From Escherichia phage vB_EcoM_P8: a stretch of DNA of 64,000 bases. The DNA is taken from the sequence record PV390659.2. One strand, 5' to 3'. How positions within the stretch are numbered: the first letter of the stretch is position 1; each line of letters starts with the position of its first letter. The translations under genes were made by a program, and so were the position numbers. Below the pieces are notes generated by a model, which was given only the letters and a program-made list of their open reading frames with translations, made no database searches and was not told the origin of the DNA. This document shows positions 53,990-59,070 of this stretch, one piece after another.

Positions 53990-54323
53990 AATTTTAGTTT
54001 TATGTATAGGATTAATTTCATTTTCTGCGTTAGCAAATACATCATATACTGAAATTAGAGAGTATGTAAACCGTACTGCCGCGGATTATTGCGGGAAAAA
54101 TAAAGCATGCCAAGCTGAATTTGCGCAGAAATTAATATATGCATATAAAGACGGAGAAAGAGATAAATCAAGCAGATACAAAAATGATACTTTATTAAAA
54201 CGATATGCTAAAAAGTGGAATACCTTAGAATGTTCAGTTGCGGAGGAGAAAGATAAAGCCGCTTGTCATTCAATGGTTGACCGTTTGGTAGATTCTTATA
54301 ATCGAGGATTGAGTACTAGATGA
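53982..54323 (+). CDS. small secreted protein (signal peptide); position of T4 vs by synteny
   Basis: 113 aa; N-terminus MTKILVLCIGLISFSALA. Confidence 0.5.
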   Translation: MTKILVLCIGLISFSALANTSYTEIREYVNRTAADYCGKNKACQAEFAQKLIYAYKDGERDKSSRYKNDTLLKRYAKKWNTLECSVAEEKDKAACHSMVDRLVDSYNRGLSTR

Positions 54324-54799
54324 TTGTAAAATATATCAAGGGCGATATTGTCGCCCTATTTCTTCAAGGTAATATTATTGCGCACGGGTGCAATTGTTTT
54401 CATACTATGGGTTCAGGTGTAGCGGGTCAATTAGCAAGGGCCTATCCTAAAATTTTAGAAATAGATAAAACCACTACCGAGTACGGTTCTCGTGATAAAT
54501 TAGGCGATATGTCTATTGTTTTTAAACATAATCCTACAGGATTTGGTATATGCTATAACCTGTATACACAATACGAACCGGGTCCTAATCTTGATTATGG
54601 TGCTTTAGTAAACTGCATGATAGAATTAAATCTACAGGCAGAGACCCTTTTGTTTAAACCAGTAATTTATATTCCACGCATAGGTTGTGGTATTGCTGGC
54701 GGCGATTGGGATAAGGTTTCTAAATTAATCGACATGTTTACTCCTGATATTGATTTAATAGTGGTGGATTATGAAAGTGCATTACCCGCATCCGTTTGA
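54320..54799 (+). CDS. macro-domain-like protein (possible ADP-ribose binding or hydrolase)
   Basis: 159 aa; glycine-rich segments GSGVAGQLARAYP and IGCGIAGGDW resemble macro-domain phosphate-binding loops. Confidence 0.5.
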   Translation: MIVKYIKGDIVALFLQGNIIAHGCNCFHTMGSGVAGQLARAYPKILEIDKTTTEYGSRDKLGDMSIVFKHNPTGFGICYNLYTQYEPGPNLDYGALVNCMIELNLQAETLLFKPVIYIPRIGCGIAGGDWDKVSKLIDMFTPDIDLIVVDYESALPASV

Positions 54800-55186: not shown

Positions 55187-55356
55187 ATAGTTTTGAGTTA
55201 CAATATGAAGTGTTACGTGAACTTGATAATTTAATTGAACTCGCTGTTAATAAAGGTTTTGCCATTGGAATTGGTCAAAAAGATACTGATCATTTAACTA
55301 TGGAAATATTTAAGCAAAAGCGAATTATTTTAAAACTTCTGGAAATTAATATATGA
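55183..55356 (+). CDS. hypothetical small protein
   Basis: 57 aa ORF not in ORF track; ATGA-type overlaps on both sides. Confidence 0.4.
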   Translation: MNSFELQYEVLRELDNLIELAVNKGFAIGIGQKDTDHLTMEIFKQKRIILKLLEINI

Positions 55357-55538
55357 GTCTGAGTAAAGAACAAAAAGATAAATTGTTTGAGCTTATCCAT
55401 GAACTTCTAGATGAGCATACAGAAGCAAACACCTTTTATGATGAATACGGCCCGCTATCTCCCGAACACCAGGAAGAATTTGCTGATCGGTTTGATAAGA
55501 AAGAAAACGAATTAATAGCTTATGTGAATACGCTTTAA
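55353..55538 (+). CDS. hypothetical small acidic protein
   Basis: 61 aa ORF. Confidence 0.5.
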   Translation: MSLSKEQKDKLFELIHELLDEHTEANTFYDEYGPLSPEHQEEFADRFDKKENELIAYVNTL

Positions 55539-55547
55539 GAAGGTGAT

Positions 55548-56129
55548 ATGGCGAGTTTAATTTTTACTTATGCAGCAATGAATGCTGGAAAATCTGCTTC
55601 TCTTTTGACTGCTGCGCATAATTATAAAGAACGTGGAATGAGTGTATTAGTTCTTAAGCCTGCTATTGATACTCGCGATTCTGTCTGTGAAGTCGTTTCT
55701 CGCATTGGAATTAAGCAGGAAGCGAATATTATTACGGATGATATGGATATTTTCGAGTTCTATAAATGGGCTGAAGCACAAAAAGATATTCATTGCGTAT
55801 TTGTAGATGAAGCTCAGTTTTTAAAAACTGAACAGGTACATCAATTAAGCCGAATTGTCGATGCATATAATGTTCCTGTTATGGCTTATGGTCTAAGGAC
55901 TGATTTCGCTGGAAAATTATTTGAAGGTTCTAAAGAACTTTTGGCGATTGCAGATAAACTTATTGAACTAAAGGCAGTTTGTCATTGCGGTAAAAAAGCG
56001 ATTATGACAGCTCGATTAATGGAAGATGGAACGCCAGTTAAAGAAGGTAATCAAATCTGTATTGGTGATGAAATTTATGTTTCTTTGTGTAGAAAACATT
56101 GGAATGAATTAACTAAAAAGCTCGGTTAG
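55548..56129 (+). CDS. tk: thymidine kinase
   Basis: 193 aa; P-loop AAMNAGKS; recognised T4 Tk. Confidence 0.95.
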   Translation: MASLIFTYAAMNAGKSASLLTAAHNYKERGMSVLVLKPAIDTRDSVCEVVSRIGIKQEANIITDDMDIFEFYKWAEAQKDIHCVFVDEAQFLKTEQVHQLSRIVDAYNVPVMAYGLRTDFAGKLFEGSKELLAIADKLIELKAVCHCGKKAIMTARLMEDGTPVKEGNQICIGDEIYVSLCRKHWNELTKKLG

Positions 56130-56138
56130 TGCAAAAGT

Positions 56139-56146
56139 TATAAATA
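56139..56146 (+). promoter_or_regulatory. late promoter upstream of rI region
   Basis: TATAAATA 56139-56146. Confidence 0.55.
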
Positions 56147-56171
56147 GGTTTATCTAACTAAAGGGGTATAT

Positions 56172-56384
56172 ATGCTACAATTAACTGAAAAGCAACTTCG
56201 CAATCTTACTGTTCTTCAATTAGATGAAATTCGTAGGGAAGTTGGAAATATCATTTCAGCTTTGCGTCGAGAAGTATCACTCAACCAATCTCCGGCAGAC
56301 TATACTAGATTGCGAAATTTTGAAAAATACCTTGATAAAGTTAAGGCCGTGCATCGGCATAAAGTAAATACAGGACAAAAATGA
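56172..56384 (+). CDS. hypothetical protein upstream of rI
   Basis: 70 aa ORF with late promoter motif upstream. Confidence 0.55.
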
Positions 56385-56396
56385 TAGGAGGCCTTT

Positions 56397-56690
56397 ATGG
56401 CCTTAAAAGCAACGGCATTATTTGCCATGCTAGGATTAGCGTTTGCTTTATCTCCACCAATTGAAGCGAATGTCGATCCTCATTTTGATAAATTTATGGA
56501 ATCTGGTATTAGACATGTTTATATGCTTTTTGAAAATAAAAGCGTAGAATCATCTGAACAGTTCTATAGTTTTATGCGAACGACCTATAAAAATGACCCG
56601 TGCTCTTCCGATTTTGAATGTATAGAACGAGGCGCGGAGATGGCACAATCATACGCTAGAATTATGAACATTAAATTGGAGACTGAATGA
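56397..56690 (+). CDS. rI: lysis inhibition regulator RI
   Basis: 97 aa; recognised T4 RI (MALKATALFAMLGL... signal-anchor, periplasmic domain). Confidence 0.9.
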   Translation: MALKATALFAMLGLAFALSPPIEANVDPHFDKFMESGIRHVYMLFENKSVESSEQFYSFMRTTYKNDPCSSDFECIERGAEMAQSYARIMNIKLETE

Positions 56691-57073
56691 AATTCAGCGA
56701 CTTTTCACAAAGTGGAAAACCTTCAAAGGCAGATGAATACTTAGGTTTATTAATGGCTGCACAAGCTTATTTTCATTCTGCGCATTTTGAAACTAAAAGT
56801 TATGCTAGACACAAAGCATACGATTTTATTTTCTCTGAGTTGCCAGATTTGATTGATAAATTTGGTGAGCAATATTTGGGGTATTCTGGTAGAAAATACA
56901 CACCTTCAATTCCAGATGCTAGTAAACTTCCTACCGACACAATTAAAATGATTGATCGTATACTAGACCAATCTAACAGCATTTACAAAGAAATGCCTCC
57001 AGCCATTCAAAGCACGATAGATGATATTACTGGAATGTTTTACCAAAGTAAGTATCTTCTTTCCCTCGAATAA
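56687..57073 (+). CDS. hypothetical protein downstream of rI
   Basis: 128 aa ORF followed by strong terminator. Confidence 0.6.
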
Positions 57074-57077
57074 CATT

Positions 57078-57100
57078 AGTCTCCTTCGGGAGACTTTTTT
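57078..57100 (+). terminator. rho-independent terminator after the rI block
   Basis: AGTCTCCTTCGGGAGACT hairpin plus TTTTTT. Confidence 0.8.
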
Positions 57101-57104
57101 CATT

Positions 57105-57145
57105 TTACCGGTTTACTTTCCATTTGAGCTGTGATACTATACAAC
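57105..57145 (+). promoter_or_regulatory. T4 early promoter
   Basis: GTTTAC 57111-57116, TACTAT 57135-57140. Confidence 0.6.
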
Positions 57146-57168
57146 TATCGGATAAAGAGGAGAACATC

Positions 57169-57357
57169 ATGAAAATTGAAGCACTTAATCAAGAAGGAAA
57201 TATCTACGTCATCATTAATGGTGATTTTTTCGTCAACATGGATGATGTTACTAGTGAAGAACTTGAAGAACTTCTTAAGAAACGTTATGATATGTGTGAT
57301 GAAGCTGCAACTCATATGGCGTGTGCAATATTCTCTCTTTCATATGTGGTGGAATAA
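57169..57357 (+). CDS. hypothetical small protein
   Basis: 62 aa from ATG 57169 with AGAGGAG RBS. Confidence 0.5.
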
Positions 57358-57560
57358 TGATTAGTATTGAACAAGCAGATAAAATTAAAGAATTGGTAGC
57401 TTTAATTCGCAAAGCAGATGAGGAACTTAGTGACTTTGCTTGGTTTTCGGCAGGCATTGCAAATAAAGGTATTGAAGAATTTGAAGCTAAAGTTGATAAT
57501 GCTGTAGAAGCTTTAGATATGTTTCTTGATGAAATTATCGATCACAATACGAGAGTTTAA
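57357..57560 (+). CDS. small helical protein, member of a tandem paralog set
   Basis: 67 aa from ATG 57357 ([17 protein letters not shown]...). Confidence 0.5.
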   Translation: MISIEQADKIKELVALIRKADEELSDFAWFSAGIANKGIEEFEAKVDNAVEALDMFLDEIIDHNTRV

Positions 57561-57562
57561 GT

Positions 57563-57757
57563 ATGCTGACACACGAACAGTTTGAAAAAATCATTAAATT
57601 AGCACGTGATGTTGAAATAGATTCATATCAATTAGCAGTTGAGCATTGTGAAGGATATTCATACGATGGTATAGAAGCAGCTAAAAAGGATTTGGATAAA
57701 TCCAAAGCTAAGTTAGTTCAATATCTTGAAATGATTAGGTGGAATAATGAAAACTGA
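57563..57757 (+). CDS. small helical protein, member of a tandem paralog set
   Basis: 64 aa (MLTHEQFEKIIKLARDV...). Confidence 0.5.
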   Translation: MLTHEQFEKIIKLARDVEIDSYQLAVEHCEGYSYDGIEAAKKDLDKSKAKLVQYLEMIRWNNEN

Positions 57758-57920
57758 AAAGCAGATGTTTTTAATGAAGCTAATTGAAGAATACGCTAAT
57801 GCAGTTTCTGACTATGAGTGTTCTTCTAGGGAAAGAGGCATAGCTTTTGCAAAGGAAGAAATGAAAATCATGGTTGATGCTCACACAAAACTCCAGAATT
57901 TTATTGAAAACGTCATTTAA
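57747..57920 (+). CDS. small helical protein, member of a tandem paralog set
   Basis: 57 aa ORF not in ORF track (MKTEKQMFLMKLIEEYANAV...). Confidence 0.45.
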   Translation: MKTEKQMFLMKLIEEYANAVSDYECSSRERGIAFAKEEMKIMVDAHTKLQNFIENVI

Positions 57921-57966
57921 TGGTTTACAAGTTGGCAAGGTTATGGTATAGTAATCTTGCCAACTG
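57921..57966 (+). promoter_or_regulatory. T4 early promoter with spacer stem-loop (PeSL-like)
   Basis: GTTTAC 57923-57928, TATAGT 57947-57952, inverted repeat CAAGTTGGCAAG/CTTGCCAACTG. Confidence 0.6.
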
Positions 57967-57980
57967 CCAAGGAGAAGAGA

Positions 57981-58085
57981 ATGAAAGTTTTGTTTGTTGT
58001 GTATGTGATGATTCAATATAATTACCCAATGTTTACTTATAATCTGGTGAACAACATTATTGATATTATTCAAAGGAGCATGTAA
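57981..58085 (+). CDS. possible 34-aa hydrophobic peptide
   Basis: ATG behind GGAGAAGAG RBS right after an early promoter; TAATG overlap with next gene. Confidence 0.3.
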   Translation: MKVLFVVYVMIQYNYPMFTYNLVNNIIDIIQRSM

Positions 58086-58270
58086 TGACAAGTGAGCAGG
58101 CTTTTAAATTAAGAGAATTAATTGAGATGTATAGTAAAGCTGTTCATGCATCAACAGTTATTGATGAATCAGCTTTCTCCGGACATGCTAATAAGATTAA
58201 ATACAAAACTCTTATGGAAGAAGCTAAAGTAAATCTTGATTCTTATATTGAAACTTTAATTGGTGAATAA
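58085..58270 (+). CDS. small helical protein, member of a tandem paralog set
   Basis: 61 aa (MTSEQAFKLRELIEMYSKAV...). Confidence 0.5.
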   Translation: MTSEQAFKLRELIEMYSKAVHASTVIDESAFSGHANKIKYKTLMEEAKVNLDSYIETLIGE

Positions 58271-58271
58271 C

Positions 58272-58538
58272 ATGAGCTTTCCTAAATTAGAAGTAGGCGA
58301 TTTAGTCTTAACAAAATTGTGGAATGATGCTCAATCAGTAGAAATCTGTCAATATCGTGGAGCAACAGGTAATTTGATGTACACGATTTATAACCCAGAA
58401 ATTTTGTTAGAGTGTCATTTGGAACGCTTTATAAAAGACACCGATAGTATGCCTTATAGTGTATCGATTGTACGTAAATCTGATACAAAGGAATACTCTA
58501 AAATTTTAGAACAAATTCATGCCAATAAAAAGGATTAA
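58272..58538 (+). CDS. hypothetical protein
   Basis: 88 aa from ATG 58272. Confidence 0.5.
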   Translation: MSFPKLEVGDLVLTKLWNDAQSVEICQYRGATGNLMYTIYNPEILLECHLERFIKDTDSMPYSVSIVRKSDTKEYSKILEQIHANKKD

Positions 58539-58539
58539 T

Positions 58540-59070
58540 ATGAAACGATTAGTACTAGAAGTTAGTTCACTTTTTGGTGAATTGGCTATAGAAAAAGTAA
58601 ATAATATGTATCGTTTGACGCAAGAAGACGATATGCTATATTTTACGCCTAGCGAAATTATTCATTTAACCCAAATTGAAAAACCATACACTGATAAAAT
58701 TGTAAGCATTAATGATGAGCATAAAATTCATTTTTATTCTTTATGCCCAGGATTTAATATTGAAAGCGAGTCAATATGCTTATCAATTAATAATTGGGAT
58801 AATTTTATAGCTAAGATTAAATATTTCTATTATTCTAATGAAAGAAAACATGGTTTAAAATGGTTTAAAAATTGCAATGCTATTATTACTAACGCTTGTA
58901 ATCAAAATTATGAAACTGTTTTAAATGTATCAAAATGCTATGAAGAGGGAGATGTCTTAACTATTCGTCAATCGGTAAATGATGTTAATGTTGTTGTATT
59001 AAACAAAGAAGAAGCTGTTTTATTAAAGACTTATCTTGATTCTGTCATTCCAACTATGATTTCAAAGTGA
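58540..59070 (+). CDS. hypothetical protein, paralogous to ORF 59248-59598
   Basis: 176 aa from ATG 58540 (ORF track 58519). Confidence 0.5.
   Translation: MKRLVLEVSSLFGELAIEKVNNMYRLTQEDDMLYFTPSEIIHLTQIEKPYTDKIVSINDEHKIHFYSLCPGFNIESESICLSINNWDNFIAKIKYFYYSNERKHGLKWFKNCNAIITNACNQNYETVLNVSKCYEEGDVLTIRQSVNDVNVVVLNKEEAVLLKTYLDSVIPTMISK

Follow-up and report, generated by a model that had tools for sequence, protein, structure and literature searches.

Five DUF7438 paralogues in a hyperplastic early region of the T4-like phage vB_EcoM_P8

Genes and early promoters of the locus

The DNA analysed here (hereafter the window) is a 64,000-nt stretch of Escherichia phage vB_EcoM_P8 (record PV390659.2), a T4-like phage of the genus Tequatrovirus, and in the region of the locus its sequence matches that of phage vB_EcoM_BMB16 at 100% identity. 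The locus forms part of the hyperplastic early region and contains five DUF7438 paralogues, four of which are orthologous to T4 mobD.4, mobD.3, mobD.2a and tk.2, whereas the accessory copy 4 is lacking in T4; the tk.1-type copy of T4 is missing from the window. The features are as follows.

55353–55538, plus strand: tk.2-type DUF7438 gene directly upstream of tk, 61 aa (Pfam 68.7 bits; phrog_653)
57078–57095, plus strand: intrinsic-terminator hairpin AGTCTCC-TTCG-GGAGACT with a T run, after rI.-1 (terminator scan)
57112–57140, plus strand: early promoter of the mobD.5 operon, TTTACT-N17-TACTAT with an upstream TG (from the sequence; conserved in T4)
57169–57357, plus strand: mobD.5, first gene of the operon, 62 aa, outside DUF7438 (phrog_3024; T4 annotation)
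57357–57560, plus strand: mobD.4 orthologue, DUF7438 copy 1, 67 aa (Pfam 61.6 bits; dN/dS 0.20)
57563–57757, plus strand: mobD.3 orthologue, DUF7438 copy 2, 64 aa (Pfam 62.1 bits; dN/dS 0.10)
57747–57920, plus strand: full-length mobD.2a, DUF7438 copy 3, 57 aa (Pfam 52.4 bits; phrog_2758; dN/dS 0.055)
57924–57952, plus strand: early promoter TTTACA-17-TATAGT with an upstream TG, equivalent of T4 Pe57954 (promoter scan)
57930–57965, plus strand: 15-bp stem-loop around the promoter spacer and −10 (RNA fold −24.3 kcal/mol, z −4.9)
57981–58085, plus strand: mobD.2, 34 aa, hydrophobic N-terminus, AAGGAG Shine-Dalgarno, outside DUF7438 (dN/dS 0.105)
58085–58270, plus strand: accessory DUF7438 copy 4, 61 aa, RB14ncORF101c type by the RB14 annotation, not in T4 (Pfam 55.9 bits; phrog_4859)
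58272–58538, plus strand: Phage_tudor gene, 88 aa (Pfam PF24144, 136.5 bits)

The five DUF7438 ORFs lie at the positions given in a preliminary description of the window, and the 34-codon hydrophobic ORF that it had placed between copies 3 and 4 is mobD.2. The T4 names mobD.4, mobD.3, mobD.2a and tk.2, as well as the curation of the family as DUF7438, had gone unrecognised there. Mean identity to tequatrovirus orthologues was ~90–96% for mobD.4, mobD.3 and mobD.2a, and the tk.2-type protein was ~55% identical to T4 Tk.2. The loop of mobD.4 differs in length between phages through indel variants, and mobD.2a is intact in this phage, while the T4 reference record holds a frameshifted 38-aa version that matches in two pieces. 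Copy 4 and the Phage_tudor gene together constitute an insertion relative to T4, where both are missing, and in some phages copy 4 occurs without the Phage_tudor gene. Neither the mobD.5 nor the mobD.2 product matched any Pfam family.

Two promoter elements frame the array. The terminator hairpin upstream of mobD.5 is 97% conserved with T4, T6 and RB14, and the promoter behind it exactly matches the PST/T4 PeSL consensus TTTACW-N17-TAYWAT (PMC4122927); in T4, the mobD.5 promoter was detected by primer extension, the RNA having been taken 3 min after infection (PMC1702504). The second promoter, whose −10 hexamer TATAGT carries one mismatch to the PeSL consensus, hardly differs from the T4 sequence between mobD.2a and mobD.2, and its predicted start site falls 21–22 nt before the mobD.2 ATG, equivalent to T4 coordinate ~57954, the position of the documented early promoter Pe57954 (PMC6024815). 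The term PeSL denotes an early promoter and a stem-loop in combination (PMC4122927), and the location of this promoter inside the 15-bp stem-loop makes it PeSL-like, bearing out the earlier proposal of such an element between copies 3 and 4. One pair of the stem varies, being G-C in this phage, A-T in T4, and G-T in T6 and four IMG/VR loci (L005, L006, L014 and L015).

Both elements resemble the PeSL cassettes described in T4-like phages (Arbiol et al. 2010, PMC2839356; Comeau et al. 2014, PMC4122927) in combining a near-consensus, sigma-70-type early promoter with a stem-loop, followed by a Shine-Dalgarno sequence and a start codon, and in lying in a hyperplastic region beside an indel that sets the phage apart from T4. 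The element before mobD.5 adopts the canonical order of terminator hairpin and then promoter. By contrast, the stem-loop of the 57921–57966 element encloses the spacer and the −10 rather than standing upstream of the promoter and has no T run; the insertion of copy 4 and the Phage_tudor gene lies one gene downstream of it. The genes mobD.5, mobD.4, mobD.3 and mobD.2a make up one early transcription unit, bounded upstream by the terminator-plus-promoter (PeSL) cassette and downstream by the promoter-in-stem-loop element, which drives mobD.2, copy 4 and the Phage_tudor gene.

Homology of the five proteins

All five proteins matched Pfam PF24219 (DUF7438) end to end with scores of 52.4–68.7 bits (E 7e-14 to 6e-19), the alignments spanning profile positions 1–56 or 1–57 of 57 and every score standing over 27 bits above the family's gathering threshold of 25. 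T4 Tk.1, T4 Tk.2 and phiEco32 gp28 match the same family. The four ORFs, together with the fifth beside the thymidine kinase gene tk, are therefore true paralogues of a catalogued T4 family, and the ORF at 55353–55538, offered in the preliminary description as a possible distant fifth member, is a genuine one with the top score of the five. The paralogous array was correctly observed but is not new, as it is already curated as DUF7438 (T4 MobD.4, MobD.3, MobD.2a, Tk.1 and Tk.2; PHROGs 653, 2758 and 4859), from which the proteins described here differ in nothing essential, having the same length, hairpin fold and early-region context. The window's 904 six-frame ORFs include no further member. 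A pseT.2-like ORF elsewhere in the genome, which reached E 1e-3 with our own HMM, had no Pfam support and was rejected as a sixth member.

The paralogues are old, being mutually ≤30% identical, and an explanation of their likeness by biased composition and the amphipathic periodicity of short helical ORFs, some of which might not be genes, draws on the faintness of some of the direct similarities. In Smith-Waterman comparisons against 2000 shuffles, mobD.3 reached z ≤2.6 with the other copies, and HMMs built from single orthologue groups found the other groups just at E 0.01–3. Other pairs scored higher, with z values of 6.5 for mobD.4 and copy 4, 6.2 for the tk.2-type protein and copy 4, 5.7 for mobD.2a and copy 4, and 4.0 for the tk.2-type protein and mobD.4. 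HMMs trained solely on family members <40% identical to the left-out protein gave the true proteins 21–45 bits, while reversed sequences scored about 0 (≤1.7 bits), 1000 full shuffles ≤12.7 bits and 1000 shuffles preserving the hydrophobic/polar pattern ≤22 bits; in none of the five cases did a single one of these 1000 attain the score of the real protein. Since shuffled and reversed sequences never attain the true scores, composition is not the explanation of the similarity, and the paralogy of these small helical proteins withstood the shuffled-sequence control that had been named as its refutation. In addition, a profile search of 1.84 billion proteins retrieved only 35 clusters (50%-identity representatives) at E ≤1e-3, all short phage proteins rather than generic coiled coils; apart from a few truncated fragments, the members were complete, ~53–86 residues long and matched from their first residues. 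Taken with dN/dS values well under 1 and the detection of family proteins in T4, the Pfam and leave-out scores refute the composition-only reading, to which we attach next to no weight.

Selection, expression and distribution

Purifying selection acts on each of the copies within Tequatrovirus, with dN/dS of 0.05–0.34 (compared with 0.013 for tk and 0.09 for rI), as estimated from pairwise counts that for copy 4 rest on few substitutions. The same pairwise counts in tequatrovirus orthologues gave no signal of positive selection. The preliminary description had regarded the array as typical of loci diversified under host-interaction selection; these dN/dS values and the age of the paralogues do not support that view. 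What varies instead is gene content, with copy 4 present in ~39% of tequatroviruses and found in 192 phage records vs 642 for mobD.2a.

In T4, MobD.3 and MobD.4 are made as early RNA and early protein, and Tk.1 and Tk.2 as early RNA and middle-class protein (PMC9697503 supplements). Purifying selection and the detection of these four T4 members as proteins from early RNA together establish that the genes are real. A viable T4 deletion running from nrdC.11 to mobD.3 removed mobD.3 and mobD.2a (PMC9825161).

Across phage genera the DUF7438 copy number ranges from 1 to 6, and in T-even phages the copies are confined to two fixed neighbourhoods. Outside T4-like phages, we looked up phiEco32 gp28 and three distant members; the latter sit amid strings of small ORFs, one of them on a 45-kb contig with phage genes. 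The 121-kb contigs L017 and L018 are phiE142, a T4-like and not a T5-like phage.

Predicted fold and possible functions

AlphaFold2 models were obtained for two of the five members and predict an antiparallel two-helix hairpin of ~60 residues in both, with helices at residues 5–32 and 37–60 in the tk.2-type copy (pLDDT 90.7) and at 4–29 and 34–63 in mobD.3 (pLDDT 95.1). The paralogues have in common a hydrophobic heptad skeleton, an N-terminal, capping-box-like motif M-[IL]-[TS]-x-E-Q-x-x-K-[LI] and a C-terminal motif L-x-x-[FY]-[IL]-x-x-[LI], and the alignment of the diverse family contains no conserved stretch of 7–10 residues. The residues conserved family-wide look structural, belonging to the core and the helix cap, and so give no hint of a binding site common to the family. 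All five proteins are acidic, as is the family at large, in which 37 of 38 diverse members carry net negative charge and 36 of 38 have a pI of 4.05–5.51.

Searches of the PDB, Foldseek comparisons with the PDB and BFVD, and searches of Pfam and NCBIfam found no sequence or structure relative with an assigned function. Foldseek against the PDB gave nothing significant, the best match (E 0.3) being to generic hairpins such as the histidine-kinase DHp domain, while against BFVD the same family came out on top and nearly all matches were uncharacterised phage proteins of ~55–70 residues. Queried with a single protein and with a profile of 38 sequences, the PDB returned nothing below E 0.01 and nothing relevant, and NCBIfam gave no significant match. 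A text search of the literature found no paper discussing mobD.4, mobD.3, mobD.2a, tk.2 or DUF7438.

The most likely role of the DUF7438 proteins would be that of small protein-binding accessory factors. We favour, with some confidence, a reading in which the five paralogues of this hyperplastic early region are hairpins that probably act as stoichiometric binders of differing proteins early in infection. The ~60-residue hairpin probably either dimerises into a four-helix bundle or packs against the helices of a partner. In the first minutes of infection, each paralogue would bind a protein of its own, from host or phage, in stoichiometric amounts and inhibit or modulate it, and binding may bring a conditional benefit in some hosts. 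Precedents for such a role are T7 Gp2, T7 Gp0.4, lambda Kil, T4 AsiA and Mosigvirus Emp (bioRxiv 10.64898/2026.09.14.751387), which are likewise tiny, early and non-essential and lie among strings of small ORFs. They have no homology to DUF7438, however, and no toxicity has been reported for a DUF7438 protein; the Mosigvirus early-protein toxicity screen names no member of the family, and its hit Emp is an unrelated 109-aa alpha/beta protein encoded near motA. The positive-selection signal expected of an arms-race interface is not seen in these genes, an observation that runs against the binder model.

About half of the T4 genes are still without a function, mostly small early ORFs of this kind. 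Five or six of these T4 unknowns are shown here to be members of a single family of paralogues, whose simple fold is predicted with confidence in the two proteins modelled; several separate unknowns are thereby reduced to one testable question. The DUF7438 array adds no new kind of system. A bolder version of the binder reading, which we put forward tentatively and consider possible but doubtful, holds that the DUF7438 proteins are modular hairpin adaptors, each neutralising a different host factor, possibly of defence or stress response, with copies swapped by the PeSL-bounded cassette and the set of copies helping to fix host range. Were this true, copy 4, with its occurrence in ~39% of tequatroviruses, would be a host-range or counter-defence gene.

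Other roles can be weighed against binding to diverse proteins. It is unlikely, in our view, that the family serves the phage's own processes, either as partners or regulators of neighbouring products (such as the y05I-like MobD.1, Tk or RI) or as ROP-like RNA-binding four-helix bundles tuning early mRNA. Such a role would suit the two fixed T-even neighbourhoods and the presence beside the array of MobD.1, which has the Pfam T4_y05I_N/C 'putative transcription factor' domains, but phiEco32 and unrelated metagenomic phage contigs have members without these neighbours. The family therefore has no conserved gene partner. The size and fold of DUF7438, which we take to be similar to those of ROP, speak for the RNA-binding form, and ROP/Rom and other dimerising helical hairpins (four-helix bundles), as well as DHp domains, are likewise ~60-residue proteins of two antiparallel helices and a tight loop. 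However, they have no sequence relationship to DUF7438, their Foldseek E values are ≥0.3, nothing indicates RNA binding or phosphotransfer for DUF7438, and the acidity of the proteins disfavours nucleic-acid binding.

That same acidity, together with early expression, raises the idea of DNA mimics or anti-restriction decoys, like Ocr, ArdA and Arn, that would block the host's DNA-binding defence proteins; acidity is nearly universal in the family, and the tk.2-type protein and mobD.4 have net charges of −10 and −9 (pI 4.3–4.4). The remaining three proteins show no more than mild acidity (net charge −2 to −4), no known DNA mimic appeared as a structural match in Foldseek searches of the PDB and BFVD, and a 60-residue hairpin is far shorter than known mimics unless oligomeric, so that we judge this explanation improbable.

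The database labels of two copies, a helicase loader for copy 4 and a molybdopterin-guanine dinucleotide biosynthesis protein MobD for mobD.4, are already contradicted and have hardly any chance of being correct, although phrog_4859 is named 'helicase loader', a frequent mislabel of copy 4, and both names are used in RefSeq records. Pfam finds DUF7438 only and NCBIfam nothing significant; homology of copy 4 to the loader families T4 gp59, DnaC and lambda P was not found in Pfam, NCBIfam or PDB searches, and mobD.4 has no Pfam or NCBIfam match to the Mob proteins of molybdenum cofactor synthesis. Furthermore, phrog_4859 is apparently just the orthologue group of copy 4, which also matches phrog_653 and phrog_2758, the groups of other copies, and the genome's annotation has the true T4-type (gp59-type) helicase loader, of 217 aa, at another place (PV102577 31249–31902). 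The mislabelled gene is recorded elsewhere as 'cell wall hydrolase' or 'kilA anti-repressor', and the analysis exposes 'helicase loader', 'MobD molybdopterin biosynthesis', 'kilA' and 'cell wall hydrolase' as misleading labels. The label 'MobD' misreads the T4 gene name mobD.x, in which mobD stands for a homing endonuclease. A link of the array to the mobD homing endonuclease itself was rejected, the phage's annotation of this stretch showing no homing endonuclease; in RB14, an ORF at the mobD position is annotated as replacing mobD.

DUF7438 paralogues in the tk-mobD region

A megablast search with 55300-58600 matched 578 phage records, nearly all Tequatrovirus, with Escherichia phage vB_EcoM_BMB16 showing 100% identity to the window region. 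The gene order was read from the T4 reference annotation together with T6, RB14 and BMB16, and the direction of T4 early transcription corresponds to the + strand of the window:

upstream part, vs, tk.4 (macro domain), tk.3 and two RB32-type ORFs
55353-55538, +, tk.2-type gene
55548-56129, tk; then rI.1, rI, rI.-1 and a terminator
57169-57357, +, mobD.5
57357-57560, +, mobD.4
57563-57757, +, mobD.3
57747-57920, +, mobD.2a; then a promoter
57981-58085, +, mobD.2 (34 aa)
58085-58270, +, RB14ncORF101c-type gene, an ORF that T4 lacks
58272-58538, +, Phage_tudor gene (PF24144, 88 aa); then mobD.1

The preliminary description had proposed the ORFs identified here as mobD.4, mobD.3, mobD.2a and the RB14ncORF101c-type gene as four paralogues, with the ORF identified here as the tk.2-type gene as a possible distant fifth, and the ORFs lie exactly as it described them. 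All five proteins matched the Pfam family PF24219 (DUF7438) over the whole model (E 7e-14 to 6e-19, 52-69 bits, gathering score 25), and the fifth member is real. In PHROGs they are distributed over phrog_653 (mobD.4, mobD.3 and tk.2 type), phrog_2758 (mobD.2a) and phrog_4859 (RB14ncORF101c type), among which cross-hits occur. Because the Pfam seed may include orthologues of the five, we ran independent controls. Smith-Waterman alignment against 2000 shuffles gave z = 6.5, 5.7, 6.2 and 4.0 for four pairs, with weak pairwise similarity for mobD.3, while close-orthologue profiles of four groups always ranked the left-out paralogue first among 900 other window ORFs, but only at E 0.001-0.15. With a broader profile of 38 diverse members, from which any at least 40% identical to the test protein were removed, the five proteins scored 35, 45, 33, 21 and 38 bits, against at most 1.7 bits for reversed sequences, at most 12.7 bits for 1000 full shuffles and at most 22 bits for 1000 shuffles keeping the exact hydrophobic/polar pattern. 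No shuffle attained the true score of its own protein, and therefore neither composition nor amphipathic periodicity explains the similarity, so that the paralogy initially proposed is correct and statistically sound. Four of the five are nonetheless orthologues of T4 genes that already have names, all five fall in a curated but functionally uncharacterised family, and the sequence is identical to a deposited genome; the family is not new and its interest is modest.

A profile scan of 904 six-frame ORFs found no further member in the window. Outside it, a 76-aa pseT.2-like ORF of the same phage (locus L034, PV102577.1, 19804-20034, minus strand) matched the family profile at E 1e-3 and 17 bits, with both the N- and C-terminal motifs around a longer middle and a negative Pfam DUF7438 result; it could be a remote relative or have matched by chance. 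Among the neighbours, the RB14ncORF101c-type and Phage_tudor genes form a ~450-bp insertion relative to T4, and the former occurs without the latter in some phages, e.g. 4E10 and EC121. MobD.1 (58540-59070) matched Pfam T4_y05I_N and T4_y05I_C ('y05I-like putative transcription factor') and varied more between tequatroviruses than any other gene of the block (~85% amino-acid identity, dN/dS ~0.3). The tk.4 orthologue (54320-54799, 159 aa) begins with macro-domain-like sequence, and an A1pp phosphatase motif is noted for Tk.4 in the T4 record.

PeSL-type elements flanking the mobD.5-mobD.2a unit

An early promoter between the third and fourth copies had been suggested and labelled PeSL-like (promoter-early stem-loop), and both points were borne out. 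A promoter scan placed TTTACA-17-TATAGT, together with an upstream TG, at 57924-57952, and the region differs very little from the T4 sequence between mobD.2a and mobD.2. Transcription is expected to start 21-22 nt ahead of the mobD.2 ATG, a point that falls at about T4 coordinate 57954, suggesting that this promoter corresponds to T4 early promoter Pe57954, downstream of which genes go up in a dksA mutant (PMC6024815). A 15-bp stem-loop at 57930-57965 (-24.3 kcal/mol, z -4.9) contains the promoter spacer and the -10 element, and this combination of promoter and stem-loop makes the label apt (PMC4122927). One stem pair is G-C in the window, G-T in T6 and four IMG/VR comparison loci (L005, L006, L014 and L015) and A-T in T4, a compensatory series. 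Lacking a T run downstream, the stem-loop does not qualify as a classical terminator; a possible role is to stabilise or process RNA that reads through from the mobD.5 operon.

Upstream of mobD.5, a terminator hairpin with a T run (57078-57095) is followed by TTTACT-N17-TACTAT, an exact match to the published PST/T4 PeSL promoter consensus, and this terminator-then-promoter order is the canonical cassette arrangement (PMC4122927). The region is 97% conserved with T4, where primer extension revealed the mobD.5 promoter (PMC1702504). This T4-conserved arrangement and the promoter within a stem-loop thus place mobD.5, mobD.4, mobD.3 and mobD.2a in one unit between two PeSL-type elements.

Distribution and selection of the family

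Among 1.84 billion representative proteins, an exhaustive HMMER search recovered only 35 clusters at E<=1e-3. A few of these are truncated fragments, and the complete members span ~53-86 residues, with matches that start at the first residues; DUF7438 is a small specific family and no generic coiled coil. Member counts from a profile scan of fetched loci were:

T4: tk.2, tk.1, mobD.4, mobD.3 and mobD.2a
T6, RB14 and EC121: six, T4's five plus the RB14ncORF101c type
window phage: five, without the tk.1 type and with the RB14ncORF101c type
L007-L013, more distant T4-like loci: two or three within the scanned 12-kb stretches
Gaprivervirus TH54: the tk.2 type and three others whose tandem order differs
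phiE142-like phages: two or three
phiEco32 (podovirus): one, gp28

By tblastn, mobD.2a was found in 642 phage records (491 at >=80% identity) and the RB14ncORF101c type in 192 (191 at >=80%), so that about 39% of tequatroviruses carry the latter. Three distant metagenomic members were looked up; each was surrounded by strings of small ORFs, and one was on a 45-kb contig bearing phage genes such as a lysozyme and NinH. In phiEco32 (loci L020/L033, NC_010324, 29631-31831), gp28 (53 aa) adjoins two HNH endonuclease genes, and megablast matches to this 2.2-kb stretch at 95-99% identity or higher number in the hundreds among phages of Klebsiella and Enterobacter, suggesting a mobile segment that is widely shared. 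In the T4 reference (L004, NC_000866, 3497-3666, minus strand), a frameshift leaves mobD.2a annotated as 38 aa, each half matching the family profile separately; the gene is an intact 57 aa in T2, T6, the window and T4 'wild' (L003, KJ477684, 2627-2797), the last record carrying it without annotation.

Across 14 tequatrovirus loci, dN/dS was 0.10 for the tk.2 type, 0.20 for mobD.4, 0.10 for mobD.3, 0.055 for mobD.2a and 0.34, with few substitutions, for the RB14ncORF101c type, compared with 0.013 for tk and 0.09 each for rI and rI.1. Purifying selection therefore acts on the family genes, if somewhat less stringently than on tk; these estimates give no indication of diversifying selection, and the substitution pattern lends no support to the earlier suggestion of host-interaction selection on the array.

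Predicted hairpins and candidate roles

The AlphaFold2 models of two members predicted antiparallel two-helix hairpins, with helices 5-32 and 37-60 in the tk.2-type protein (pLDDT 90.7) and 4-29 and 34-63 in mobD.3 (pLDDT 95.1), in line with the initial view of small helical proteins. Conservation among the 38 diverse members is found at hydrophobic positions with heptad spacing in the two helices, in the N-terminal motif M-[IL]-[TS]-x-E-Q-x-x-K-[LI], which resembles a helix capping box, and in the motif L-x-x-[FY]-[IL]-x-x-[LI] at the C-terminus. The paralogues differ in the loop and helix surfaces, and loop variation within orthologue groups, indels included, was clearest in mobD.4. Little surface is buried by a lone hairpin of 60 residues, which makes pairing into a four-helix bundle, or packing on a partner's helices, probable.

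In the time-resolved transcriptome and proteome of T4 (PMC9697503 supplements), MobD.3 and MobD.4 belong to the early class for both RNA and protein, Tk.1 and Tk.2 combine early RNA with middle-class protein, and mobD.2a, mobD.2 and mobD.5 have early RNA but no assigned protein class. The block from nrdC.11 to mobD.3 is missing from a viable T4 with a reduced genome (PMC9825161), and therefore at least mobD.3 and mobD.2a are dispensable in the laboratory. Most plausibly, each paralogue would bind a different host (or phage) protein stoichiometrically and confer a conditional benefit, a role consistent with synthesis within minutes of infection, the dispensability of some in T4, variable copy number and a conserved surface particular to each paralogue. 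DNA mimicry is rated lower, since net negative charge is general (37/38 diverse members; pI 4.05-5.51 in 36/38) but strong acidity is confined to two copies. A phage-internal regulatory or ROP-like role is likewise less favoured, given the acidic proteins and the lack of a conserved neighbour outside T-evens. The functions annotated in databases fare poorly, as 'helicase loader', 'molybdopterin-guanine dinucleotide biosynthesis protein MobD', 'kilA anti-repressor' and 'cell wall hydrolase' are mutually contradictory and backed by no model, and a real gp59-type loader is annotated elsewhere in the same genome.

PDB sequence and profile searches returned nothing relevant, Foldseek against PDB gave generic hairpins only (E >=0.3), NCBIfam had no significant match for the family proteins, and a literature text search found no paper naming these genes or DUF7438; the closest BFVD matches were uncharacterised small proteins of related enterobacterial phages. 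Misleading names have spread through RefSeq and GenBank for 57357-57560, 58085-58270, 56687-57073 and their orthologues, including 'XRE family regulator', 'integrase' and, for rI.-1, 'starvation-inducible transcriptional regulator', and none of the attached product names had Pfam or NCBIfam support among the proteins scanned. By Pfam, the gene labelled 'XRE family regulator' is Phage_tudor, and the molybdopterin label derives from the gene name mobD.x.
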